64,000 nt of DNA, taken from Candidatus Aminicenantes bacterium (GTDB lineage Bacteria > Acidobacteriota > Aminicenantia > Aminicenantales > UBA8522). Positions within the stretch are counted from its first letter, which is position 1, and every line of letters begins with the position of its first letter. Below, in pieces: positions 4,334 through 32,642 of the stretch. The notes below the pieces were generated by a model. That model was given only the letters and a program-made list of their open reading frames with translations. It searched no databases and was not told the origin of the DNA. The translations under genes were made by a program, and so were the position numbers. The DNA lies in assembly GCA_963764885.1 (NCBI GenBank), contig CAVXUH010000014.1, forward strand, positions 27,319 to 91,318, in the 5' to 3' direction.

Positions 4334-5893
4334 ATGTCGAGAAGACTGATCATCGGCCTGACGGCCGTGGGGATCGCCGCCCTCTCACCGGCCGCGGCCC
4401 AGCAGACCAGCAAGTCCCTTTCACTCCGGGACTGCATCCTCGTCGCCCTCAGGAACAACCTGGGCGTCCACGTCGCCGTCCTGAGCCCGGACCTGGCGGA
4501 AGCGAACCTTGCTTGGGCCAGGGAAAAGTTCCTGCCGCGCCTGGCGTTCGGCTACAATAACCAGAGGACAAGCTCGGCCTCGTATTCCTGGATCGATGCC
4601 GCCGGCAGCGTCAACACCCGGTACAACGATCTCTCGGCGTCCGTTTCCCAGGCGATCCCGACCGGGGGCAGCGTGTCGGCATCGCTGAGCGGATACAAGA
4701 GCCAATCCAACCTCAAATTCCAGACCATCAACCCCCGCTATGGCAGCACCCTGAGCCTCAGCCTGAGCCAGCCCCTGCTCAGGAATTTCGGCCCGAAGAT
4801 GAGCCGGCGAGACATCCTCATCTCGCAGAACAACCGGGACATATCGGAGGGCCAGCTCCAGGCCGTCCTGCTCGAGACCATCTACGACGTCGAGCAGTCC
4901 TACTGGAACCTTATCTATGCCATCGAGAACCTGTCGGTCAAAAAGCAGTCGCTGGACCTGGCCAGGGACCTGGTGTCGAAAAACAGGCGCGAGGTGGAGA
5001 TCGGCATGGTGGCCCCGATCGAGCTCCTGAGCGCCGAAGCCGAAGTGGCCACCCGGGAGGCCGACATCCTCCAGGCTGAGGTCGCCGTCGCCAACAGCGA
5101 GGACGCGCTCAAGACCGTCATCAACATCGCTGCCGAGGAAGGCGGCGGGCTCGTCACCATCGTGCCGTCCGACAAACCCAGCCAGGAACGGCGGACGGTC
5201 AGCGTCGAGGAGGCCCTCCAGGCGGCGGTCAACAACCGCCCCGACCTGCAGGTGACGAGGATCAGCCTAAAAAACAAGGAACTCAACGTGGCTTATGCCA
5301 GGAACCAGGTCCTTCCCGACTTGAATCTTGTCGCTTCCTATTGGAGCCCCGGCCTCTCGGGAACACAGCTTCTCTACCTCAACAACGACCCGCTGACCGA
5401 TACCGTCATCGGCACCCTGCCCTCGGGGGCCGGGGCGGCACTCAGCCGGGCCCTCGGCCTCAAATACAATAACTGGGCGGTCGGCGTCCAGCTCAACCTT
5501 CCGGTGGCCAGCCTGCTGACCCGGTCGCAGTTCGAGGCGTCGAGGATCAGCTACGAGCAGTCGCTGGCCGACCTGGCCGATCTCGAGCAGCGCATCTTCC
5601 TGGAGATCCGGACCGCGGTCCGGGCGGTCGAAACCGACTTCAAGCGGGTCATGGCCTACAAGGCCGCCCGCGAGCTCGCCGAAAGCAAGCTGACGGCCGA
5701 GGTGAAGAAGCTCACGGTCGGCCTGACGACAAACTACGTTGTCCTCCAGTATCAGCGCGACCTGGCCGATGCCAAGACGGCCGAGCTGCGGGCGATCATC
5801 GAGTACAACCTGGCGCTGGCCTATCTCGACAAGTCCCTGGGGACGAGCCTCCTCAGCAAGAGCATCGAGTTCGCGCCGTTCCGGACTTCCTAG
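4334..5893 (+). CDS. TolC-family outer-membrane efflux channel
   Basis: GAGGAGG RBS 7 nt before ATG 4334, then a signal peptide. Two tandem OEP repeats with TolC-like spacing: SLSLRDCILVALRNNLGV...; SVEEALQAAVNNRPDLQVTRISLKNKELNVAYARNQVLPDLNL. Confidence 0.85.
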   Translation: MSRRLIIGLTAVGIAALSPAAAQQTSKSLSLRDCILVALRNNLGVHVAVLSPDLAEANLAWAREKFLPRLAFGYNNQRTSSASYSWIDAAGSVNTRYNDLSASVSQAIPTGGSVSASLSGYKSQSNLKFQTINPRYGSTLSLSLSQPLLRNFGPKMSRRDILISQNNRDISEGQLQAVLLETIYDVEQSYWNLIYAIENLSVKKQSLDLARDLVSKNRREVEIGMVAPIELLSAEAEVATREADILQAEVAVANSEDALKTVINIAAEEGGGLVTIVPSDKPSQERRTVSVEEALQAAVNNRPDLQVTRISLKNKELNVAYARNQVLPDLNLVASYWSPGLSGTQLLYLNNDPLTDTVIGTLPSGAGAALSRALGLKYNNWAVGVQLNLPVASLLTRSQFEASRISYEQSLADLADLEQRIFLEIRTAVRAVETDFKRVMAYKAARELAESKLTAEVKKLTVGLTTNYVVLQYQRDLADAKTAELRAIIEYNLALAYLDKSLGTSLLSKSIEFAPFRTS

Positions 5894-8052
5894 CCCCGGA
5901 TTTCAACCTCGTAGATCGACCAGAAGTACTCGGGGCTGCCCGAGGTCAGGACGATCCGGATGAACCGGGCGGGTCGGCGGGAAAAGACGATCCCGTAGGA
6001 GATGTCGTTGGCCCGAAGGTACTCGCGGATGGGAAGAAGCGGGGTTTCGAGGCGGACGGCTTCGGTCCAAGTCAGCCCGTCCGAGGACACTTCCACCCGG
6101 CAGCCGCGCGGGTAGTCGAACAGGCTCGGCCCGAGCTTGAGGCGCAGGCCGGAGACGTTCCGCACTTTCCCAAGATCCAGGAGGAACTCGTCGCCGGGCT
6201 TCTGAAACTCGGTGCTCCAGCGCGTTTTCATATCCCCGTCAACGGCGCGCGGGGCGAACTCGTTGTGGACGCTTGCCCGGGCCTGCCAGCCCGTCGCCCG
6301 GGAGGTGGCATCCTGGAGAGGCGCGCCCGGCGAAGGCTCGCGCGGGGTCGGCGTCGGCGAAAATTCGTACACCACATCATCGCCCAGCCGGCCCGCCTCG
6401 CGCACCGTCGTGGCCAGGCGGGCAAGCTCCGAGGCCAGGAGGCTGCGCGATTCCGCGGTGAATTCGGCCTCGTGGACAACGAGGTAGCGGACGCCGAGAT
6501 CGGCGGCGTCCTGGATGTTCTGCGCCACGGGAGCCTCCCGCCAGCGTCGAAGCAACTCATCATAAACCGGCGGGAAGAACCCGCTGTAGCCGTTCACCAG
6601 GTTGTGCCAATGGACGGTCGAGTAGTAAACACGCGGGCATTCGACAAGCCCGATCCCGAACCTGGGCGGGGGCAGTGGTATCTCCAGTACGGCGCCGTCG
6701 TTGTGCTGGGCGGCCAGCCACCGGTAGACTTCGGGGACGTTCCCGCCCGGGGGGAAATCCTCCAGGGGAATGGGGAAGGAGGCATACTCGGCCAGGATCA
6801 GGAGCGGCAAAAGGCACGAGATCAAGACCCGGCCTTTTCCCCGGAACTTGGCGATGAGCTGGCGGGAGCCGAAAGCCGCCAGCACGGAGAGTCCGAACAT
6901 GACGAAAATATGGAACCGAGCGGGGACGCGCAACCCGTTAAACCCGGGCAGGAATCTGTAGAGAAGGATGTACGGGCCGTTCGGACCGAAGGTAAAAAGA
7001 AAAGCGAGGAGCGTGATCGTGCCGTAAATCATGGCCATGACGGGTGGGGACGGTTCTGGCCTTGGGGACGTTCCCCACGCCGGGGAACGTCCCCAACGGG
7101 GAGCGCGCCGGTTCGCTGCCAGGGAAACGAACCCGGCCGCTGCCAGGAGAATGGCCAGTGCCCCGGGGAAAAGGTGCTTTTCCGGAGTCTGAAAGCGCGC
7201 TGTGAGACCGCCGTAGGCGCGGTTGAAGGGCGGGGCCGCCAGAAAACTTGTCAGGCTGGCAGGCGTACCGACATTCCGGAAAAAGCCCATATCCCTTCCC
7301 ACCCTGACATATTGATAGGCGAACGGCCCGGCCAGAAAGAGGATGATCGCGGCGGCCGCCAGCATGTCCCGCCAGAATCGCCGGTCCAGGATTTTCCTCT
7401 GCGCGACCGCCATATACAGGATAATGAGGCCGGCGAAAAAAGCCAGGTAAAGGGCGTAATAGCCGTTGGCAAGCGCCTGAAGGCCCGCCGCCAGCGCAAA
7501 AAAGATAATCTCGCGGGGCCGGCCGGTCTCGAAATAGCGATGGATAAAGAGAAAGGCCAGCGGGATCCCCGCCGCCGTGACGATCTGAATGTGGACGAAA
7601 TGGGAAAACATGAACGGCGAGAAAGCGAAGATGATCCCCGCCACGACCGCGGCGAAACGGCTTCCTGTCAGATGGCGCGCCAACGCATACATCCCCAGCG
7701 CCGATGTCAGGTAGGCCAGGAGGAGCATGATGTTGTGGGCGAGCAGCGGGTTCGAGGAGAATACCCGGATGGGAAGCGATGCCAACGATTGCGTAAAAAG
7801 GTGCTCCGAATAGGCCAGGGTCCGCCCGTTCGGGAAGAAGATATTGGCGTCGAAATAATGAGCAACGTCCAAGCGGGTCATCTCCCGGACGTTCCAGGAC
7901 ATGATCCAGGACGTCAGCAGGCCGTCCCCCAGGTCCCTTACGCCCGTGCCGAGCCGGAGAACCAGCGGGTACGTCATGACGAGAGTCACGAGAAGGAAGA
8001 GCGCCGGCACGGTCAGCCGCGAACTCATCGATTTCTTAGGGCGTATCGGCAT
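5890..8052 (-). CDS. GT-C-fold membrane glycosyltransferase-like protein (GT39/ArnT/PMT-like polytopic N-half) fused to a C-terminal F5/8 type C (discoidin) carbohydrate-binding domain
   Basis: 720-aa ORF with ~12 predicted TM helices in the N-terminal 430 aa. The soluble C-terminus ends in a discoidin-like domain (NEFAPRAVDGDMKTRWST...LRLKLGPS...WSIYEVEIRG). The start is ATG 8052 or 8028 (uncertain). The gene overlaps the tolC-like stop by 4 nt convergently. Confidence 0.6.
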   Translation of the reverse strand: MPIRPKKSMSSRLTVPALFLLVTLVMTYPLVLRLGTGVRDLGDGLLTSWIMSWNVREMTRLDVAHYFDANIFFPNGRTLAYSEHLFTQSLASLPIRVFSSNPLLAHNIMLLLAYLTSALGMYALARHLTGSRFAAVVAGIIFAFSPFMFSHFVHIQIVTAAGIPLAFLFIHRYFETGRPREIIFFALAAGLQALANGYYALYLAFFAGLIILYMAVAQRKILDRRFWRDMLAAAAIILFLAGPFAYQYVRVGRDMGFFRNVGTPASLTSFLAAPPFNRAYGGLTARFQTPEKHLFPGALAILLAAAGFVSLAANRRAPRWGRSPAWGTSPRPEPSPPVMAMIYGTITLLAFLFTFGPNGPYILLYRFLPGFNGLRVPARFHIFVMFGLSVLAAFGSRQLIAKFRGKGRVLISCLLPLLILAEYASFPIPLEDFPPGGNVPEVYRWLAAQHNDGAVLEIPLPPPRFGIGLVECPRVYYSTVHWHNLVNGYSGFFPPVYDELLRRWREAPVAQNIQDAADLGVRYLVVHEAEFTAESRSLLASELARLATTVREAGRLGDDVVYEFSPTPTPREPSPGAPLQDATSRATGWQARASVHNEFAPRAVDGDMKTRWSTEFQKPGDEFLLDLGKVRNVSGLRLKLGPSLFDYPRGCRVEVSSDGLTWTEAVRLETPLLPIREYLRANDISYGIVFSRRPARFIRIVLTSGSPEYFWSIYEVEIRG
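7062..7096. repeat. 35-bp perfect inverted repeat (15-bp arms TTGGGGACGTTCCCC / GGGGAACGTCCCCAA, 5-nt spacer) embedded in-frame in a CDS
   Basis: Read directly: TTGGGGACGTTCCCC ACGCC GGGGAACGTCCCCAA. It lies inside the GT-C gene, in a Pro/Ser/Trp-rich inter-helix loop (..GRSPAWGTSPRPEPSPP..). Confidence 0.8.
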
Positions 8053-8083: not shown

Positions 8084-9559
8084 TCAATAGAATTCGCTAA
8101 GGTCGGGCAAGTCGCGGAACCCGGCTTTGCCCGCCTCGCGGCACATGATCTCCTTGAGCTCCTTGCGGATGGACCTTCGGGGCAGGTTCTCGACCGCCGG
8201 CTGGAGAAGCCGGGCGGCCTCTTCGCTGGCTCTCTCGGCGATCGTCTTTTTCCCGAGCGTGACCCAGCCGTCGTAAGTCTCGCGGTCGGTAACCTTCGGG
8301 AATGTGTGCTCGGCGCGATACCATTTCCTGGTGTGGGGCATCGTCAGGAACTGGCTCCCCGGCTCGAACCCCTCGAACAGGCCCAGGGCCAGGGGCTCGT
8401 CCCGCTGCGCGATGCCCTGGACCAGCCGGTAGGCCATGCCGCAGATTTCGTTGTCGATCACCAGCTTTTCCAGGCTCTGGGCGCTCTCGTAATCGAGCAT
8501 GCCCGGACCGGATACGATATTGACCCCCGCCAGGGCGGCAAGGACGGCGCCCATCCCGGTCTCAAAACCGGCTTGCGCGTCGTTGATCTTGGCGTCGCTC
8601 AGCGCCATGTAGGCGTGGGTCGGCAGCCCCAGCGACTTGCCGATCTGGACGTAGGCGGCGTCGATCATCATGGTCTCGATGGCGCCCATCGGGGTCGTGC
8701 CGTGGCGCATGTCGAAACTGGAGGGTGAGCCGCCGAAGATGACGGGAGCGCCCTTTTTGGCCAGCTGGGCGATGACAACTCCTGACAGGTTTTCCGCGAC
8801 GTGCTGGACGAGGGTGCCGGCGATCGTCACCGGCGAAGTCGCTCCGGTCATGCCCATTGAGATGAGCTCGGAAGGGACGCCCGCCCGGGCCGCGTCGATC
8901 AGCGACTGGGCCGTCAGGTTGCTCCACTTCAGGGGTGGGGAGGGGCAGGCGTCGAATACGGCCAGCGGCTTGTCCGCCAGCCGCTCGGCACCGCCGCGGA
9001 CAGCGGCCAGCATCTCGAGCATCGGCCGGAAGCCCTCGACCCGGAATGTCCCGGTGATGACCGGCTTGCTCGAAAAATGAAGCGCGAGGTAAAGGCGATA
9101 TATGTCCGCGATCTCGTCGGGGACATCCGAGCTGACCAGTCCGGTGCTCTGGAAGTGGAGATGGGGGAGGGCGTCGCTGAGCCGGACGAACCTCACAACA
9201 TCGGCGGTCACGGCCTTTCTGTGGGCCTGGACCGCGTGGTCAAGGAGGCTCACCGCCGCCGAGCCCGGGTCGAAATGGACCTCGTCCCGGCCGACGACGA
9301 ACCGCTGCCTTCCCGAGCGGTCATAGAGCCGGAAGACGGCGGGCGCCGCCGACACGCAATCATCGACCAGGTCGCCTTTGAGGAAGGCTCTCTTGCCCGT
9401 CCGGTCGATCTTCTGTCCGGCGCTCCACAAAAGCTCCATGGCCTCGGCGTTCTCGACGAACACCCCCTGTTTTTCAAGCAGGGCCAGGGCCTCGCCGACG
9501 ATCTTCTGGACGAAACGCTTGGTCAGCAGCTCGACCTTGGGTCGTCTGGGTTTGATCAT
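8084..9559 (-). CDS. MttB-superfamily (trimethylamine methyltransferase-like, non-pyrrolysine) substrate:corrinoid methyltransferase
   Basis: 491 aa from ATG 9559 with a GAAGGGG RBS. Strong MttB-family signatures along the whole length: ...LSDAKINDAQAGFETGMGAVLAALAGVNIVSGPGMLDYESAQSLEKLVIDNEICGM... There is no in-frame amber codon, so it is a non-Pyl member like the betaine/carnitine-type MtgB/MtcB/MtpB enzymes. Confidence 0.85.
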   Translation of the reverse strand: MIKPRRPKVELLTKRFVQKIVGEALALLEKQGVFVENAEAMELLWSAGQKIDRTGKRAFLKGDLVDDCVSAAPAVFRLYDRSGRQRFVVGRDEVHFDPGSAAVSLLDHAVQAHRKAVTADVVRFVRLSDALPHLHFQSTGLVSSDVPDEIADIYRLYLALHFSSKPVITGTFRVEGFRPMLEMLAAVRGGAERLADKPLAVFDACPSPPLKWSNLTAQSLIDAARAGVPSELISMGMTGATSPVTIAGTLVQHVAENLSGVVIAQLAKKGAPVIFGGSPSSFDMRHGTTPMGAIETMMIDAAYVQIGKSLGLPTHAYMALSDAKINDAQAGFETGMGAVLAALAGVNIVSGPGMLDYESAQSLEKLVIDNEICGMAYRLVQGIAQRDEPLALGLFEGFEPGSQFLTMPHTRKWYRAEHTFPKVTDRETYDGWVTLGKKTIAERASEEAARLLQPAVENLPRRSIRKELKEIMCREAGKAGFRDLPDLSEFY

Positions 9560-9579
9560 GGTGATTCCCCTTCTCCGGC

Positions 9580-10230
9580 CTATTTCCCGATGAGCGCGAG
9601 GGCCAGCCTGACCGCGGCCGGCGCGTTCTCGGCGTAGCCGTCGGCCCCGATCTCGGAGGCCCACCTCTGGGTGACGGGGGCGCCGCCCACCAGGATTTTG
9701 AAGCGCCCGGCCAGGTCCCGGGCTTTGAGAAGCTCCATGAACTTCTTCTGATTCAGCATCGTCGTCGTCAGCAGCGCCGAGAGGCAGATGAAGTCGGCTC
9801 CGGTCTCTTCGGCCTTTTCGATGAAACGCTCGAGCTTGACGTCGGCCCCCAGGTCCTGGACGTCGAACCCGTGGGCCTGCATCATCGAAGCCACGAGATT
9901 CTTGCCGATATCGTGGATGTCGCCCTCGATCGTCCCGATGACCACCCGCCCCTTAACGGGCGCGTCGAGGTGGGCCTTTTTAAGCTCGGGCTGCAGGACC
10001 GTCATGGCCGCCTTCATGCCCTCGGCCGAGCTGATGAGCTCGGGCAGAAAGTATTCTCCCTTTTCCCAGAGCTCACCCACTTTCTGAAGACCGGGGATGT
10101 AGCCTTTCTCGATCACTTCGAGGAGGTCGAGTCCGCCGGCGACGGCCTGTTCGGCCAGCGACCGGGCGTCCTCCTTCCGGCCGTCGATGATGGCCTGGGC
10201 CATCTTCGCCATCATGTCCGATGTGCTCAT
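9580..10230 (-). CDS. cobalamin-binding corrinoid protein (MtbC/MttC-like)
   Basis: 216 aa from ATG 10230. N-terminal B12-binding-cap helical domain, then a Rossmann B12-binding domain carrying the DxHxxG motif (GTIEGDIHDIGKNLV). It lies 20 nt upstream of the mttB-like gene. Confidence 0.85.
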   Translation of the reverse strand: MSTSDMMAKMAQAIIDGRKEDARSLAEQAVAGGLDLLEVIEKGYIPGLQKVGELWEKGEYFLPELISSAEGMKAAMTVLQPELKKAHLDAPVKGRVVIGTIEGDIHDIGKNLVASMMQAHGFDVQDLGADVKLERFIEKAEETGADFICLSALLTTTMLNQKKFMELLKARDLAGRFKILVGGAPVTQRWASEIGADGYAENAPAAVRLALALIGK

Positions 10231-10264: not shown

Positions 10265-12028
10265 TCAGGTCCATGGTCCGAACTCGAGAGCGTCGATAAA
10301 TTGGTCCTGGAATCCCGGGTCCGAGGCCAGCGAGGTGAAACGTACCCTCTCAACCAGGGCCTCGATCCTTTCCCGCTCGCCCTTGGACTGGAGCAGCAGC
10401 CGGGCCCCCGCCAAGGATGAATTCCCGATGAAGACTAGCTTTTCAGGGTCGATGCTGGGCAGCAACCCCAGGGCCAGGCTGTTGGGGATATTGAGGTAGC
10501 TGCCGAAAGCGCCGGCGATAAAGATGCCGCTGAGGTCGCCGGCGGTCAAACCGTTTTGGGCGAGCAGGATCCTCACGCCGGACTTGATGGCGGCGCAGGC
10601 GAGCTGGAGCTGCCGGATGTCGTCCTGGGCCAGCGTCAGGGTGCCCGAAACCCGGATTTTCTTGTCCGCGTTCCGGACGGCCCCTCCGGGCGAGATTTCC
10701 CCGCGGGCCAGGGCGATGGCTGCGAGATCGATCAGTCCCGTCCCGCAGACGCCCGTTTCCGCCTGTCCCCCGATGACGGCGAGCTCGATCGTCCCGAGGC
10801 CCCCGGCCGCCCGATAGACTGCCCCCGGCAGGGCGGGCATGCCGCAGCTGATGTTCATGCCTTCGAACGCCGGTCCGGCCGCGGTCGAGGTCGTAATCAG
10901 TTCACCCCCCGCCTTGAGCACGAGTTCGCCGTTTGTCCCCAGGTCGATGAGCAGGAAATGCCCTTCGTTCCCGGCCATCCGGGAGGCCAGCAGGCCGGAG
11001 GAAATGTCGCCGCCGACAAAGCTCCCGATGTTGGGGGAAAAATAGACCGGAGCGCGAGGGTTGACCGCCAGCCCGGCCTCGGCGGCCGGGCTGACCGGGG
11101 CCCGAGAAAAGACCGCATGGTAGGGTGCCGTGGCCAGGGTGTCGACGGGGACCCCCAGGAGAAGATGCGACATGACGGTGTTCCCTGAGATCACGGCCTC
11201 GCGGACGGATTCCGGCCGCGCCCCGTTCCGATCGAGCAGGCGCCCGATCATCCCGTTCAAGTCCCCCAGGACGAGGCCCCTGAGCTCGGCCGCCTTCCCC
11301 GGATTCCCATAGGCGTAAGTGATCCGAGATATGACATCGGCCCCGCGCCGGACCTGGCTGTTGAGGGCCGCTTCGGTGTCGACGGTTCTTCCCGTATCCA
11401 GATCCAGGAGATCCATGACCAGGGTCGTCGTGCCCACATCCACGGCCAGGCCGAAGTTCCGGTCGAGGGCGCTCCCGGGCTCCACGGCGATGACCCGGCT
11501 GTCGAAATGGACCGCCACGGTCACGCGGGAATCGCCTTTTTCGACGGCCCCAGGCAATTCCTTGAGCAGGCCGGCCGATATCGTCAAGCCTTTGAGCCCG
11601 AGACCGTCTGTGAGCAGGTCGAACAGGGATCGCGGGGAGGAGATGCTAGGCTGCGCCAGCTCGAGCTCGTAGAGCCTGACGGCCGGGTCGGGAGTCACGA
11701 CCGAACGGGGGATTTCGGGCAAGATAGGGACGGGCCGGACGGTAAAGGCGGCCGGGACGTTGATCTCCAGGTCGCCCGCCACCGTGAACTGGCAGGCCAG
11801 CCGGAAGTTCTCTCCCAGGCTTTTCTGCAGGATCCAGGCCGCCTCTTTCCTGCCGGATGGGGGAAGCCTGCCGCTGAGCACCTCGACGAAACATTTGCCG
11901 CAGAGGCCCCGGCGGTCGCAGTAGACGCTTATGGGGATCCCCGCCGCCTGTAGCCTATCCGAAAGCCGGTCTCCGTCCTCGGCCCGGATTTCGAGGTCGT
12001 GGGAGGGAACCTTGATCGTCCGGCTCAT
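10265..12028 (-). CDS. RamA-like ATP-dependent reductive activase of corrinoid proteins ([2Fe-2S] ferredoxin domain + ASKHA/DUF4445 domain)
   Basis: 587 aa. N-terminal plant-type 2Fe-2S ferredoxin fold with the Cys cluster (CDRRGLCGKCFVEV...C). The remaining ~480 aa match the ASKHA-fold corrinoid activation domain (COG3894). It sits immediately upstream of the corrinoid protein. Confidence 0.8.
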   Translation of the reverse strand: MSRTIKVPSHDLEIRAEDGDRLSDRLQAAGIPISVYCDRRGLCGKCFVEVLSGRLPPSGRKEAAWILQKSLGENFRLACQFTVAGDLEINVPAAFTVRPVPILPEIPRSVVTPDPAVRLYELELAQPSISSPRSLFDLLTDGLGLKGLTISAGLLKELPGAVEKGDSRVTVAVHFDSRVIAVEPGSALDRNFGLAVDVGTTTLVMDLLDLDTGRTVDTEAALNSQVRRGADVISRITYAYGNPGKAAELRGLVLGDLNGMIGRLLDRNGARPESVREAVISGNTVMSHLLLGVPVDTLATAPYHAVFSRAPVSPAAEAGLAVNPRAPVYFSPNIGSFVGGDISSGLLASRMAGNEGHFLLIDLGTNGELVLKAGGELITTSTAAGPAFEGMNISCGMPALPGAVYRAAGGLGTIELAVIGGQAETGVCGTGLIDLAAIALARGEISPGGAVRNADKKIRVSGTLTLAQDDIRQLQLACAAIKSGVRILLAQNGLTAGDLSGIFIAGAFGSYLNIPNSLALGLLPSIDPEKLVFIGNSSLAGARLLLQSKGERERIEALVERVRFTSLASDPGFQDQFIDALEFGPWT

Positions 12029-26190: not shown

Positions 26191-26832
26191 GTGAGGGCAG
26201 GGGAGGGTCATCTGGAAAAGCTGGACCCGGCTATCGAGAAGCTGGGAGTCAAGAAAATTTATCGGGCCGATACTTTTCTTTTTCACGCCAAGGACGAGGC
26301 CAAGGGGTTTTTCTATGTGAAGCAGGGAGGGGTTCGCGTCTTCAGGATGGACAAAGACGGCCGGGAGATGGAGATCGTCCGGCTCGGACCGGGGGATTTT
26401 TTCGGGGAGGCGGTAGCCATCGTCGGGGGCAGCTTTCCCGCCTATGCGAGGGCAACGGAAGAAACCAAAGTCATCTATTTCGACCGCCGGGAGATGCTGC
26501 TCAGCATCGGGCGGGACCCGGCGGCGGCGCGGTTCTTCCTGAAGCTCCTCGCCGGCAAGTGCCTCATCCTCAACGAGCGGATCGAGTCGTTGGGGCTGCT
26601 GAGCGTCCGGCAAAGACTCGCGCGGTATCTTCTCTCCTGCTGCGCCGGCGAGCCGAGCTGTCGGGTCGAACTCCAGACCAAGAAAGGCGACCTCGCCAGG
26701 CAGCTCGGCATCGTCAGCGAGACGCTGTCGCGGAACCTCAGGGAGTTGGAGGATGAAGGCCTGATCCAGGTCAAGGGAAGGAGCATCCGCGTCATGGACT
26801 GCCTCAGGCTGAAGCGAGAGCTACCCGAATAG
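26191..26832 (+). CDS. Crp/Fnr-family transcriptional regulator (cNMP-binding domain + C-terminal HTH)
   Basis: GGAGGTAAAGGC RBS before GTG 26191. cNMP-binding beta-roll (..GDFFGE..), a dimerisation helix, and a C-terminal HTH (ARQLGIVSETLSRNLRELEDEGLI). Confidence 0.85.
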   Translation: MRAGEGHLEKLDPAIEKLGVKKIYRADTFLFHAKDEAKGFFYVKQGGVRVFRMDKDGREMEIVRLGPGDFFGEAVAIVGGSFPAYARATEETKVIYFDRREMLLSIGRDPAAARFFLKLLAGKCLILNERIESLGLLSVRQRLARYLLSCCAGEPSCRVELQTKKGDLARQLGIVSETLSRNLRELEDEGLIQVKGRSIRVMDCLRLKRELPE

Positions 26833-26988: not shown

Positions 26989-27787
26989 ATGGCAAAAAGG
27001 AAGATCATCGAGATCGAAAGAGATCTATGCGACGGCTGCGGTCTGTGCACCACGGCCTGCGCCGAGGGCGCGCTGGCCCTGGATGAGGAGGGCAAGGCCG
27101 TGCTGGTCAGGGAAATCTACTGCGATGGACTGGGCGCCTGCCTGGATGTCTGTCCGACGGGCGCGCTCAAGATCGTCGAAAGGGAGGTCTCAGGCTACGA
27201 CCCGGCGGCGGCTTATCGTCACGTCTTGAAGACGCGGGGAGCCGACGCAGCGGCCAAGGTCCATGGCGCCGATGATCTGAAGGCAGGGGGAACACCGGCT
27301 GAAGGAAGGCCCGGCGAGCGCCAGCAAGGGCCCAACGGCCGCCGGTTCGCCCCAAGAGCCGTAAGTTCCGCCGGCCGGCAGCCTCTTGCCCGCGGTTGTC
27401 CCGGAAGCGCGGCCCGGGAGATACCGCGGGAGAAGTCGGAGGCGGGCGCCCCAACGGACCGTCTCCGGTGCCTCAGAGCTTCGCCAGTGGCCGATCCAGC
27501 TCCACTTCGTATCTCCCTACGCGCCCTATTTCAAGGAAGCGGATTTGCTGATCGCGGCCGACTGCACGGCCTTCTCGCTGGGCAGCTTCCATCAGGACCT
27601 GCTCAAGGGCAAGATGCTGGTCATCGCCTGCCCCAAGCTCGACGAGACCGAAGGTTACGTCGACAAGCTCTCGGAGATCGTCCGGGAGAATCGCCCCAAG
27701 TCCCTGACCGTCGCCATCATGACGGTTCCCTGCTGCTCCGGTCTGTTCAGGATGGTCGAAGAGGCCGTCCATCAGCTCGGGAGTTGA
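26989..27787 (+). CDS. 4Fe-4S dicluster ferredoxin-domain protein with a conserved C-terminal CxxC...PCC domain; frameshifted (at least 1-2 indels)
   Basis: N-terminus [60 protein letters not shown] (two Cx2Cx2Cx3CP-type motifs). The C-terminal part, in another frame (ORF-track 27386..27787), reads ..[49 protein letters not shown]...TVPCCSGL.. This matches a widespread anaerobe family of 4Fe-4S-dicluster proteins with a C-terminal Cys-rich domain (assigned by sequence similarity). Confidence 0.6.
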
Positions 27788-28149
27788 CCTGCCCGTCGAA
27801 AAGAGAGGTGATCCATATCGACGGCCGGTTCACGCGCACTGACGGCGCCGGCGTAGTGGCCGTACCGGCGCCAAGTCCGGGAACCGGACACTCATTGGCT
27901 TAGTTTACAGCGATCTGAGATCAGCGTAGATTCGAGCGGGACGACATTCGGGATAATGGATATTGCTATTTGAGAATTAAGCAGCATCAACCGTCGAGGG
28001 CAGGCTATACGGTCAATAGTCCAGGTCGGAAATTGTCGGGTTATCAAGAAATTCACGCCTCGTCGCGTGCCGAGATACTGCGGGAATACTACGATATCGC
28101 GGCATCAGAAGCGATTCACGCCCGGGATCCAGGGCCAATCGTCCGAGGA

Positions 28150-29545: not shown

Positions 29546-29747
29546 GACGCGCTCGAAGCCCGGGCTTCTCATTCATTCCTAGCACCGTCCAAGTTTTCGC
29601 GATTATAAAGGAACTCCTGCGCAAGTTCAAATTCACGCTCGCATCGATGAGACCTACGGCGTTCTCTTCAGACCGTTCTTTATTCCTGACGCCATTTTTC
29701 AAACCGCCAACATCATCCGTCCCGGAGAAAATTAGCTTTATATCTTT

Positions 29748-29765
29748 TTTATTATCAATTATTTA
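29748..29765 (+). repeat. AT-rich 18-mer TTTATTATCAATTATTTA (copy 2 of 2)
   Basis: Identical to 23917-23934. It lies in the AT-rich parA upstream region, immediately 5' of a TATAAT hexamer and the 20-bp palindrome. Confidence 0.8.
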
Positions 29766-29768
29766 TAT

Positions 29769-29788
29769 AATGTCGGCATGCCGACATT
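29769..29788. promoter_or_regulatory. perfect 20-bp palindrome AATGTCGGCATGCCGACATT overlapping a TATAAT hexamer, ~145 nt upstream of parA (candidate operator or centromere-like site)
   Basis: Read directly: tatAATGTCGGCATGCCGACATTctc, with the TATAAT at 29766-29771. It is not the canonical parS (TGTTNCACGTGAAACA). Confidence 0.5.
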
Positions 29789-29931
29789 CTCAGACTCCGA
29801 CACCCGTCACGTTTCTTTTATTCTTTACTTTGCCCGGCGCGTTGCCCCCGTCTGCACCTTGCGCCTCTTCCATCGATCAGAAGTCCCGTTCGATATTTTT
29901 TCTTGCATTTTACTTTTTCCTCCATTATCCT

Positions 29932-30740
29932 ATGTTCCATTCTCGGAACGCGACCGACGCCTTGGAGGATTCGTTGATCATCGCGATCACCAATCAAAAG
30001 GGCGGAGTGGGGAAGACCACGACGGCCCTCAATGTCTCCGCAGGCCTGGCCTTGATGGGCTACCGGATGCTCCTCATCGATACCGACCCCCAGGCTCATA
30101 GCAGCAGCTCCTGTCTTAACGATTCGTCCGCCTATGCCAAGTCCCTCTACGATATTCTCGTCCACCCCCAGGACAGCATCGAGACCATCATCGCCAAGTC
30201 CACCATACCCGGCCTCGATGTCGCCGTCTCGAGGATCTCCATGGCCAAGCTCGAGCCGGCGCTCCTCGGCGAGATCGACGGCCACTATCGTCTGAAGGAT
30301 ATCATCCAGCCGATCCTGCCGAAATACGATCACATCGTGATCGATACGCCGCCGACCCTCGGCCTGATCACCATGAATTCACTTGTCGCCGCTACCCATA
30401 TTCTGATCCCCATCCAATCCTCCTTCCTGTGCCTGGAGGGCACGGACGATCTCCTCGAAACGATCGACAAGGTCAAGCGGGTCGCCAACCCGCAGCTTCA
30501 GCTCCTCGGGCATCCTGATCACCCTCCACGACAAGCGCACCAACATCTCGCGGGACGTCGTCAAGAGAATCCGCAAGGTCTTCGGCGACCTCGTTTTCAA
30601 GACCCTGATCTCGAAAAGCGTCAAGCTCGAGGAGAGCCCGGCTTATAAGGAATCCATCTTCACATACGCTCCCGAATCCGTCGGAGCCGTTCCAGTACCG
30701 GAAAATCGCCGAGGAGATAATCGAACGTGCTAAAAACTAA
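29932..30740 (+). CDS. parA: ParA/Soj-family partitioning ATPase; two frameshifts near the 3' end (~30510, ~30680)
   Basis: Deviant Walker A IIAITNQKGGVGKTTTALNVSAGLA, ..LLIDTDPQAHSS.., ..IVIDTPPTLG.. The ORF-track frame derails at ..QLQLLG. Shifted frames give ..ILITLHDKRTNISRDVVKRIRKVFGDLVFKTLISKSVKLEESPAYKESIFTYAPES.. and then ..[14 protein letters not shown] with TAA at ~30738-30740. The first shift is at a ctcGGGcat G-run. Confidence 0.8.
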
Positions 30741-31564
30741 ACGATCCGGCCTGCCCGATACGCTCGTCATGCGCCACGACGATCACTTCGTCGACCTGAT
30801 TTCGGCCCGGATCACCGGCCCCGACCATCCGCATGATCCCGCTCGACCGCATCGACCCCAATCCCCAGCAGGCCCGGAGCGAACTCGGCAACATCGAGGA
30901 GCTCATGTCCTCGATCAAGTCCAAGGGTGTCCTCGAGCCGATTCTCGTCCGCCCCGGAACGACCGGTACGAGATCATCGCCGGTGAGCGACGCTATGTCG
31001 CCTCGAAGCGCGTCGGCCTCAAGGAGATCCCCGCCATCGAGATGCACGTCAAGGATAACGAGGCCCTGGAGATGGCGCTCATCGAAAACGTCCAGCGCAA
31101 GGACCTGGGCGTCTTCGAGGAGGCCGACGGGCTCAAGGCTCTGATCGATATCTACGGCTATAACCACAACCAGCTCGCCGAAAAGATCGGCAAGGCCCGC
31201 TCGACGATCACCGAGATCATCAACGTCGCGCAGATCCCCAAGCGGCTGCGCGAGCCTCTGCGCCGAATATGACATCACGAGCCGTAGCATGCTCATCGAG
31301 ATCGCCAAGCTCGATAAGGAAGAGGACATGGAGAAGCTGATCACGCAGATCAGCCAGCGCGGCCTCCGCCGCGAGGATACCCGCGAGCTGTCCAAGAAGC
31401 TCAAGGGCAAGCAGAGACACACCCGGCCGTTCATTTTCAGCTATTCGCCGGCCGCCAACGATTATTATCATCTCCGCCTGGAATTCAAGAAGCACTCGGT
31501 CGACAACACCGAGATCATCCAGGTTCTCGAAGAGATCATCACCCGCCTTAAATCCAAACGCTGA
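30727..31564 (+). CDS. parB: ParB/Spo0J-family partitioning protein; at least 3 frameshifts
   Basis: GTG 30727 overlaps the parA end. ORF-track 30727..31272, 30833..31144 and 31289..31564 join as ..[40 protein letters not shown] / ..[52 protein letters not shown].. / ..[12 protein letters not shown]...RLKSKR*. The ParB box II GERRxRA motif is present. Confidence 0.8.
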
Positions 31565-32642
31565 CAAGACGCCGGCCGCGGCGCGAAGGGCAGGGGCCTT
31601 AACCTTGCCCCTCTCCGTAAAAAGTACTTAGTTGACATAATATCTGTTATGCGACGCATATCGCGGCGCCTCCCATATCAGGCTTCCTATCAGGTGCTTG
31701 GAGTAATTCACAGGCTGTGGATATCCCGACTGCCCTGGTTTTGGGCAATTGTGGATATCCGCCGTCCGTCGGCATATCCTGGGAGGCTCAATGTCGGCGC
31801 TCCGCCCGGCGACGACGATCCGTTCACCATCAACGCCCCCCATCAATCGAGCGTTCTACCGCCTGCGGGGCGAGCGTTCCTGCGGCAACAAATCCAATTC
31901 TGGCGTGCATGGCCGTCAGAGGGCTGCGCGGGGATTACGCGGTCGATGGCGGCGGCCCCGCCCATATGAGTTGCCGGATTCATGTCAAGGGTCTCTCGGC
32001 CGCGTCATCAGCCAGGCCCCGGCGCCCACTTTCGATCTCCCCGCCGCGTGGGCACCGGGAAGTAGCTTCGGCAGAGGCCCCTGATCTGAGCCCCGGGGGG
32101 CCTCCTTGCGCTCTGTGTCACAATTGGAGCCGACGACAATACGCTCTGAATAAAGGCGCCTGCCAGGCAGGGCATTCCCCCGGCCCGCCTATCTATCGGG
32201 CCCCCTCCCCTGCCGAATACCGCCAAAACGGGCCCCTTATGGGGCTCCCAGCCAGAAACGGCTGTTTTTTTACGGGAACCACGGCCAGCCCCCTTGGCGG
32301 GCACGGGGCGGAATACCGATACGGGAACACATCCGGCTGTCTTAAGCCCCTGTGTGCGAGACTTTGGGCTCTAAAGAGCGTGAATTCTCAGGGTTGAGTC
32401 CCCCTCTGACAGCCGATTTCCGGCCACGCCGGAGCGAAACAGTAGGACTTTTGTGCTCGCAGAGCCATTTTTCCGGACGCTAAACCCCGAATTGCGGCTC
32501 CTTGGGAGCCGCATCAAGCGCCCTAATCGCATAAAGGATGCCTCGCGCGCAGAGATCAGCCCGGATTGTCGGGGCAGGAATTTAAAAAAAGGCGTAGAGG
32601 ATGAATCCCGGTCGACGGCAGTCCGTGATCCGGGACGGGGCC
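31565..32642. other. ~1.08-kb gene-free GC-rich region between convergent parB and rho; candidate non-coding RNA locus or decayed gene
   Basis: No ORF in any frame resembles a protein; the listed ORFs are low-complexity GC artefacts. The region contains a TTGACA hexamer at 31632-37, several strong hairpins, and a terminator-like element at 32232-32271. Confidence 0.4.
32232..32271 (+). terminator. intrinsic-terminator-like element: GCCCC-TTAT-GGGGC hairpin, then CAGCC-AGAAAC-GGCTG hairpin followed by T7
   Basis: acgGGCCCCttatGGGGCtccCAGCCagaaacGGCTGTTTTTTTacggg on the plus strand. No annotated plus-strand gene ends here, which implies an unannotated plus-strand transcript within the gap. Confidence 0.45.

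Follow-up and report, generated by a model that had tools for sequence, protein, structure and literature searches.

A conserved palindrome upstream of parA in Candidatus Aminicenantes is probably a non-canonical parS for a divergent ParB of Acidobacteriota

In a 64,000-nucleotide (nt) stretch of the Candidatus Aminicenantes assembly GCA_963764885.1 (contig CAVXUH010000014.1; hereafter the window, whose numbering is used throughout), a perfect 20-bp palindrome, AATGTCGGCATGCCGACATT, lies at 29769-29788 (no strand assigned) in front of the genes parA and parB, with its centre 196 nt upstream of the parA start. We consider it probable, on comparative grounds, that this palindrome is a lineage-specific, non-canonical parS and that it would be recognized by the divergent 'type-2' ParB encoded downstream of it. 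It contains a 16-bp core, TGTCGGC-AT-GCCGACA (TGTCGGCnnGCCGACA; 29771-29786), and has several of the general properties of a parS: a short palindrome is found within or next to parAB, the nearby ParB has a helix-turn-helix (HTH) and an N-terminal CTPase domain, and a ParA partner is present. An earlier note on this DNA had offered two explanations for the palindrome, an autorepression operator overlapping a -10 box and a centromere-like site distinct from the canonical chromosomal parS. The comparative evidence speaks strongly for the second of these, as the motif tracks parAB throughout the phylum, the adjacent ParB carries altered recognition residues and the canonical parS is missing.

The local setting is much as the earlier note had described it. 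The palindrome was confirmed by direct reading of the sequence, and the spacer that holds it is flanked, according to Pfam, by a frame-broken amino-acid permease gene on the minus strand, ending at 29572, and by parA on the plus strand. This spacer (29575-29931) is indeed the most AT-rich part of the window, the GC content of 29651-29950 being 0.44 against 0.63 for the window overall. The canonical parS, TGTTNCACGTGAAACA, likewise has no match in the 64-kb window at up to three mismatches. AATGTCGGCATGCCGACATT occurs once in the window, even when three mismatches are allowed, and is the longest of its perfect palindromes. Its length is not significant by itself, because 17% of first-order Markov (dinucleotide-frequency) shuffles of the window hold a perfect palindrome of at least 20 bp; the evidence that the palindrome is real is its conservation. 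An additional CCGACA half-site is found at 29797-29802, 8 nt past the right edge of the palindrome, as part of the direct repeat CATTCTCAGACTCCGAC; it has not been kept in L002 or L003, two of the related loci considered below.

Comparison of the regions upstream of parA in relatives, which the earlier note had proposed, bears the palindrome out. All six loci that were fetched through orthologues of ParA (L001-L006; 77-96% identity) keep it despite diverged spacers; L004 departs from it only in the centre, where CATG has become CACG, and L005 only at the last base. When all fetched loci are pooled, the core TGTCGGCnnGCCGACA is found 61-184 nt before the parA start in 27 of the 27 Aminicenantes-type loci that have upstream sequence. 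The palindrome goes with parA and not with the divergent gene, because L004, in which the permease is absent and a plus-strand Fer4 gene precedes parA, retains it. The same result was obtained with an unbiased sample of 80 metagenome loci picked by type-2 ParB peptide patterns alone, the motif playing no part in the choice. Here the core lies upstream of parA in each of the 11 Aminicenantes-like loci whose upstream sequence is 900 nt or longer (10 exactly, one with a single mismatch), and L135 has two copies of it 73 nt apart; these 11 are included in the 27. In 17 more distant loci of this sample the exact core is instead found inside parB, centred at +497, and the rest have no core within 4 kb on either side. 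Shuffled versions of these sequences contain no exact core sites.

To see how far the motif extends, species-representative genomes were scanned for exact matches to ATGTCGGCNNGCCGACAT, which returned at least 120 stretches. Among the matches listed, to which all the counts in this paragraph refer, 91 of 120 stretches are labelled Acidobacteriota, and the classes represented are Aminicenantes, Thermoanaerobaculia, Blastocatellia, Terriglobia, Vicinamibacteria and Holophagales. In full, the consensus is 20 bp long (AATG...CATT). Of 124 sites, 43 are inside parB, for the most part with their centres 496-506 nt from its start and in a few cases at its 3' end, and 16 are 60-165 nt upstream of parA, so that these two placements together take up 59; four more lie elsewhere near parAB, and 61 have no parAB in the surrounding 8-kb block. 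ParB and ParA are the two largest families of neighbouring proteins, whereas clustering of the neighbours of sites away from parAB revealed no recurring gene. Most of the Acidobacteriota-labelled sites without parAB that could be assessed, being far enough from the end of their block (34 of 36), are intergenic, mostly with low-GC flanks. The earlier note had reasoned that occurrence at many unrelated loci would make the palindrome a generic repeat. Dispersed intergenic copies do occur in Terriglobia, yet we do not accept the generic-repeat reading, as the genomes concerned encode the same ParB subtype; the dispersed copies are multi-copy sites of one motif, as expected of a parS. Tandem or paired sites are seen in L135, L082, L048, L121 and L046. 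As a side observation, a metagenome-assembled genome (MAG) of Cloacimonadota (L048) and one of Binatia (L062) encode the same ParB subtype, with its TE and K-R signature, and have the motif inside parB, in two copies in L048. The type-2 ParB and its motif could have reached lineages outside Acidobacteriota by horizontal transfer, they could simply be more widely distributed, or these contigs could be mis-binned.

The copies inside parB allow selection on DNA to be distinguished from selection on protein. All 17 intragenic copies of the unbiased sample use identical codons, TGT CGG CTG GCC GAC ATT, for the peptide CRLADI. The locus L197 encodes the same peptide as TGC CGG CTG GCG GAT ATC; it lacks the intragenic motif, and its copy is found upstream of parA. 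In L201 the peptide is CRQADI, again from other codons, and there is no motif. Coding constraint as the cause of intragenic conservation is ruled out by these two loci, in which the same or a similar peptide is encoded by other codons with no intragenic motif. The constraint follows the DNA, because L197 encodes the same peptide differently and has its site upstream of parA; selection thus acts on the DNA and not on the protein, and the site can move. The fixed intragenic position, together with the either/or placement seen in L197, mirrors the canonical parS inside spo0J/parB.

The ParB next to these sites belongs to a distinct subfamily that is widespread in Acidobacteriota and is also found in some Cloacimonadota and Binatia MAGs. 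Like canonical ParB/Spo0J, it has the ParB_N and HTH_ParB domains and the CTPase motifs GERR and ENLQR, and the GERR, E106, N107 and R110 columns are invariant in alignment A1. Among proteins of known structure, the one closest to it by sequence is Spo0J of T. thermophilus (1vz0; 3.1e-36); the orthologue in L002 scores 151.6 bits against a cutoff of 58.45 with the generic ParB/RepB/Spo0J domain model TIGR00180 of NCBIfam, whereas the NCBIfam Noc model gives type-2 ParB 161.5 bits, far under its cutoff of 315. The difference lies in the part of the protein that reads DNA. The window protein has the recognition helix GKARSTITE, and TSRSTLI replaces xGHARALL; all 57 motif-adjacent ParBs and all 80 type-2 ParBs of the unbiased sample share GK(S/A)Rxx(I/V)(T/S)E and (K/R)SxLL, whereas canonical ParBs read GKxRSxVAN and GHARALL at the corresponding places. 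In Caulobacter numbering, mapped through 1vz0, four parS-contact residues are changed from canonical ParB, namely Q162H, N178E, G201R (K in other classes) and R204L, and G170, K171 and R173 are kept. Thus, of the residues R173, G201, Q162, N178 and R204, which are conserved in ParB proteins specific for canonical parS (PMC7383237), type-2 ParB retains R173 alone. Jalal et al. 2020 (PMC7383237) describe G201 in particular as an absolutely conserved residue of ParB orthologues.

These changes can be set beside the bases of the motif. The palindrome agrees with the canonical parS consensus at 6 of 16 positions and so does not match it. It resembles canonical parS in being a 16-bp palindrome with no central spacer that retains the outer TGT...ACA, in lying inside parB or next to parAB and in sometimes being multi-copy or clustered, and it differs at positions 3-7 of each half-site and in a consensus that extends to 20 bp. 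In parS register, the new half-site reads T0 G1 T2 C3 G4 G5 C6 N7. Guanine 1 is read by R173, and cytosine 6 by R201 of Noc, as Jalal et al. 2020 have shown (PMC7383237). Noc is the ParB paralogue of Firmicutes, and its site is NBS (TATTTCCCGGGAAATA). The residue changes in type-2 ParB fit the motif on these rules, in that G1 is kept along with R173 and C6 appears with a basic residue 201. Type-2 ParB would accordingly resemble Noc as a ParB-family protein whose specificity has been switched (here judged from sequence), in the pairing of a basic residue 201 with C6 of the half-site (PMC7383237) and, in Terriglobia, in having dispersed sites. It is nevertheless different from Noc in several respects: it keeps R173 and G1, whereas Noc has Q173 and A1; N178 and R204, conserved in both ParB and Noc, are changed in it; and its gene is in an operon with its own parA.

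The canonical parS is absent within 10 kb on either side of parAB in L004-L006 and from all the Aminicenantes-type loci examined, and the 492 kb of type-2 parB loci contain no match to it at up to two mismatches. It is present, however, alongside the new motif in part of Terriglobia. The locus L035, on an Acidoferrales MAG contig (CAWBVH010000048.1, 1789-4500), is a classic rsmG-parA-parB locus whose ParB is canonical (RGLGRGLGALI, TVAN, GHGRALL), with five canonical parS sites at 2499-2795, upstream of parA. The new motif occurs there at 2020, inside rsmG, where it encodes C-R-L-A-D-I within the S-adenosylmethionine-binding motif, and at 2436, at the 3' end of rsmG. In addition, a parS-like palindrome lies 58 nt away from the motif in L075, and in L070 type-2 parB is followed, 1.3 kb downstream, by a near-canonical parS. 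These observations imply that Terriglobia, at the level of the order, have both ParABS systems, with the new sites dispersed and sometimes co-localized with canonical parS; this coexistence with canonical ParABS is a further difference between the new site and canonical parS.

Several findings weigh against the parS reading, and some of them would suit a different protein. The motif in L035 adjoins canonical and not type-2 parAB, its two copies flanking a locus that has five canonical parS of its own, which would also suit a separate, par-linked factor. Type-2 parAB of Acidoferrales have no copy of the motif within 10 kb on either side, yet dispersed intergenic copies exist (by source names, the type-2 ParB group with no nearby site comprises Acidiferrales and Acidiferrum). 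On one Acidoferrales contig the copies lie at about 0.55, 0.89 and 2.99 Mb, a spread of some 2.4 Mb that is wider than a classic parS cluster. The 64-kb window itself contains a single copy, and neither dnaA nor rsmG is among the large open reading frames scanned in it. Copy numbers per genome taken from the exact-match scan are lower bounds. Lastly, the core is identical, at 14 of 14 specified positions, to the published operator consensus of CooA, also TGTCGGCnnGCCGACA (Rodionov et al. 2004, PMC545781).

The first of these findings lead to the main residual rival, that the motif is bound by another DNA-binding protein of Acidobacteriota, a regulator of the par operon or an origin- or nucleoid-organizing factor, which is linked to par without being ParB. 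The site also abuts a DnaA-box-like TTTTCCACA in three Terriglobia loci, and in Aminicenantes a second conserved block, described below and resembling a site for integration host factor (IHF), adjoins the palindrome, so that other factors would act there. Against such a protein speak the fixed position inside type-2 parB across several classes and the either/or placement in L197, both of which parallel the canonical parS in spo0J/parB. The phylum-wide invariance of the motif moreover parallels that of the altered residues of type-2 ParB, G1 and C6 fit R173 and K/R201, and among the matches listed no candidate gene co-occurs with the motif except parA, parB and two genes adjacent to parB. On balance we regard such a factor as unlikely. 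Two further features of the Terriglobia copies may be recorded here. Orthologous intergenic copies share extended flanks (L027 at 3752, L040 at 6995 and L089 at 1856; L007, L020, L084 and L123), and in one set the motif abuts a DnaA-box-like TTTTCCACAGGGG, while in another it is followed by TTAAAGTAAAAC.

The identity with the CooA consensus raises the possibility that the palindrome is an operator for a carbon monoxide-sensing, CooA-like regulator of the CRP/FNR family that controls parAB or the divergent permease. Two genes upstream there is a Crp-family gene (26191-26832) that is conserved in synteny, and outside Acidobacteriota the same 18-mer is found in CooA-like contexts: upstream of a CooM-like hydrogenase subunit in L117 (1129-4286), beside hypA in L054 (2513-3233) and, in L065 from Desulfotruncus (5172-7430), beside a Crp regulator with an RQTVTS helix and a CooA-1 match of 1.5e-17. 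The sites in L065, L117 and L054 are likely, from these contexts, to be genuine CooA-type operators that use the same DNA word. The local Crp protein, on the other hand, is closest to DNR; its helix, SETLSR, is of the E--SR type of FNR/DNR, and CooA structures match it at only 3.8e-7. As a candidate binding factor it was rejected, its FNR/DNR-type helix being unlike the RQT helix of the L065 regulator. Nor does the genomic context resemble that of the coo operons of Rhodospirillum and Desulfovibrio, whose operators share the core (PMC545781), as neither a CO dehydrogenase nor a coo hydrogenase nor any other coo gene is among the large open reading frames scanned in the window. In most classes of Acidobacteriota the site falls at a constant codon position within the parB coding sequence, the wrong place for an activator; the sites away from parAB have no recurring neighbour gene among the matches listed; and both flanking promoters are far from the site and at distances that vary (about -150 to -180 in the window). 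The proposed binder here is of the ParB family, CooA of CRP/FNR, and the sites of relatives lie inside coding sequence. A CooA-type operator therefore has very little chance of being the right explanation, and we read the identity of the two cores as sequence convergence.

The suggestion that the palindrome is an operator laid over a -10 box has fared less well than the rest of the earlier note. An operator over a promoter is a known arrangement in plasmid par operons; here it would block RNA polymerase at the parA promoter, and the hexamer TATAAT is present on the plus strand at 29766-29771, overlapping the left arm of the palindrome by 3 nt as had been stated. It forms part of the A/T-rich left flank of the palindrome. 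The promoter scan called no plus-strand promoter at this hexamer, which has no -35 partner, and the hexamer is missing from all the orthologous spacers, where equivalent positions read TTATCAG, TTAAATC, TTAATGC, ATAATTC and TTAACTA. It is probably fortuitous. A better candidate for the parA promoter, inferred from conservation and consensus, lies at 29903-29931 on the plus strand; it is sigma-70-like, with a -35 TTGCAT (29903-29908), a 17-nt spacer and a -10 TATCCT (29926-29931). The block tttcTTGCAt-17-TATyCT is found in most relatives, its -10 ending 30-43 nt before the parA start, that is, at a fixed distance from the start codon. The distance from the palindrome to this putative promoter, by contrast, ranges from 14 to 114 nt among relatives. 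In many of them the right edge of the palindrome is 14-25 nt from the -35, which puts the centre of the site near -60 and makes some effect on the promoter conceivable; the gap is wider, 104-114 nt, in L001, L002 and the window (114 in the window itself), with the centre about 150-160 nt upstream of the predicted transcription start. Since the TATAAT is neither conserved nor paired with a -35, and since the conserved parA promoter is further downstream, the operator-over--10 reading is unsupported. With sites inside parB in other classes as well, its probability appears to be slight indeed. On the minus strand, a candidate promoter of the divergent permease, TTGAAC-17-TATAAT, lies at 29602-29630; it has 10 of 12 matches in the scan, is conserved in L003 and is not part of the par element.

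The spacer holds another conserved element beside the palindrome. The block TATCAATTATTTA (29753-29765, plus strand) ends 3 nt short of the palindrome, on the flank that faces away from parA, and is preceded by an A/T tract at about 29736-29752. The consensus of IHF sites is WATCAANNNNTTR; the block in the window matches it exactly and has the upstream A/T tract of such sites, which makes it a putative IHF site. In the left flanks of 26 relatives, a match with at most one mismatch is found in 16, against a mean of 2.0 for shuffled flanks, and an exact match in seven, against 0.09. The right flank, taken as a control, gave one match on the plus and two on the minus strand at up to one mismatch and none that were exact. 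The gap between block and palindrome is 3-6 nt in 15 of these 16 loci that match at up to one mismatch.

An alternative at the level of RNA or of replication would make the palindrome a terminator or attenuator hairpin, or part of a replication origin in the AT-rich spacer. The palindrome can form a hairpin whose stem is 8 bp and whose loop is 4 nt long (-9.9 kcal/mol, z = -2.6), and Terriglobia copies have the form AAAA-stem-TTTT; many of them, shaped AAAA-motif-TTTT, resemble bidirectional terminators. In the window, though, no T-run follows the hairpin and the terminator scan calls none there, and copies inside parB cannot be terminators. Both 7-nt arms are invariant in more than 100 genomes, with no compensatory changes and variation confined to the central 2 nt, and Rfam at its gathering threshold finds nothing in the spacer, its matches elsewhere in the window being to tRNA and a PYLIS element. 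An origin would suit the position of the spacer, the most AT-rich of the window and adjoining parAB; the spacer, however, contains no DnaA box at up to one mismatch, and the local GC-skew change runs from plus to minus, the opposite of an origin. We give the hairpin and origin explanations next to no weight. The CooA, -10-operator, terminator and origin readings are thus each contradicted by specific tests. A separate observation concerns two DnaA-box-like 9-mers, TGTGGATAT, at 31716-31724 and 31750-31758, 34 nt apart, in the unusually long gap of about 1 kb (31565-32642) between the convergent genes parB and rho. A pair of the same spacing is present in L002 (4745 and 4779) and absent from L004-L006; such a pair downstream of parB is too little to call an origin.

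Returning to the parS reading, its mechanism can be outlined by analogy with canonical ParABS. Dimers of type-2 ParB would bind the 16-bp core, the bound protein would then form closed, CTP-dependent clamps that slide onto neighbouring DNA, and ParA would move the resulting partition complex. We infer both that ParB is the binding protein and that these later steps follow. The single site of Aminicenantes is upstream of the parA promoter and does not overlap the core promoter; loading of ParB there might also tune transcription of parAB, which would amount to some ParB-mediated autoregulation from an upstream site. A divergent ParB with a non-canonical palindrome next to its operon, as found here, is known from ParAB2/parS2 of Vibrio chromosome 2, Burkholderia replicons, ParB-parS of P1 and KorB-OB of RK2, and orthogonal ParABS systems of secondary replicons and plasmids can coexist in one cell. 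At parS of P1 an IHF site adjoins the centromere, as the IHF-like block does in Aminicenantes, and KorB provides an example of a ParB-family protein that regulates promoters from upstream sites. Unlike these systems, the type-2 system is conserved phylum-wide and is not replicon-specific, and its neighbours here are housekeeping genes of the chromosome (rho, lon, clpXP, tig, dnaK and alaS); the structure match of type-2 ParB to KorB is also much weaker, at 5.7e-11.

The genes of the locus required some correction of the sequence. After frame correction against the intact, syntenic L002, parA, which encodes a Soj-type ATPase (Pfam AAA_31, 5.4e-52), spans 29974-30740 on the plus strand with its stop at 30738-30740, and parB, of the type-2 Acidobacteriota subfamily (Pfam ParB_N and HTH_ParB), spans 30727-31564 on the same strand. 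A Shine-Dalgarno sequence, GGAGGA, was read directly at 29964-29969 (plus strand) and is followed by the TTG start of parA at 29974; the N-terminus IIAITNQKGGVGKTT aligns with orthologues, and the closest named ParA homologues are from Candidatus Aminicenantes (Acidobacteriota). Relative to L002, parA is broken by single-base insertions at about 30508 and 30689 and parB at about 30819, 30952 and 31251; these five single-base indels are mostly at short G/C runs. Other frame-split genes between about 27000 and 34000 are the Fer4 gene, the permease gene and rho. The breaks at about 27-34 kb probably reflect local assembly or sequencing errors and not pseudogenes or gene decay.

Some features of the neighbourhood deserve mention in their own right. 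A DNR/FNR-like Crp-family regulator (26191-26832, plus strand) and a Fer4/AF_0155-type protein (26989-27903, plus strand) are syntenic with parAB in all the long relatives (L002 and L004-L006). Further away, an uninterrupted gene at 8084-9664 (minus strand) encodes a 526-residue methyltransferase of the MttB superfamily (Pfam MTTB, 4.7e-88), with a RACo corrinoid activase gene nearby at 10265-12028 (minus strand). An Rfam match to PYLIS_3 inside it, at 8503-8602 (minus strand), is barely above the threshold (40.5 bits against 38). The product is probably a non-pyrrolysine MttB homologue, because the gene has no in-frame stop codon.

Chromosomal parS is usually treated as near-universal, and both the tools that search for it and the models of ParB specificity assume TGTTNCACGTGAAACA. 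In the literature we found no account of the present motif as a parS or of a non-canonical parS in Acidobacteria, although prior knowledge is possible. With more reserve than for the site itself, we offer the tentative picture of a second, orthogonal 'centromere code' in Acidobacteriota and a few neighbouring lineages, in which a ParB clade would have departed from an otherwise invariant set of parS contacts (E178, K/R201 and L204, with R173 kept) and co-evolved with a new 16-20-bp parS, (A)ATGTCGGCnnGCCGACAT(T). In Aminicenantes this parS, upstream of parA and adjoined by an IHF-like site, may be the sole centromere of the chromosome, and in Terriglobia it would coexist on the chromosome with canonical ParABS, the sites of the two being co-localized. 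Such a code would be a natural case, at the scale of a phylum, of a switch in specificity of the kind dissected so far only for ParB versus Noc. The occurrence of the same 16-mer as the CooA operator in other phyla calls for caution in regulon prediction. The apparent presence of two ParABS systems with co-localized sites in Terriglobia raises the question of how they share one chromosome. If the motif is an alternative parS used throughout the phylum and matched by changed recognition residues in ParB, it would explain the missing canonical parS around parAB in Aminicenantes and related classes and would supply a simple marker for centromere regions in many uncultured Acidobacteriota genomes. 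It would also put to a natural test the residue-to-base rules worked out for ParB and Noc, which pair R173 with G1 and a basic residue 201 with C6.

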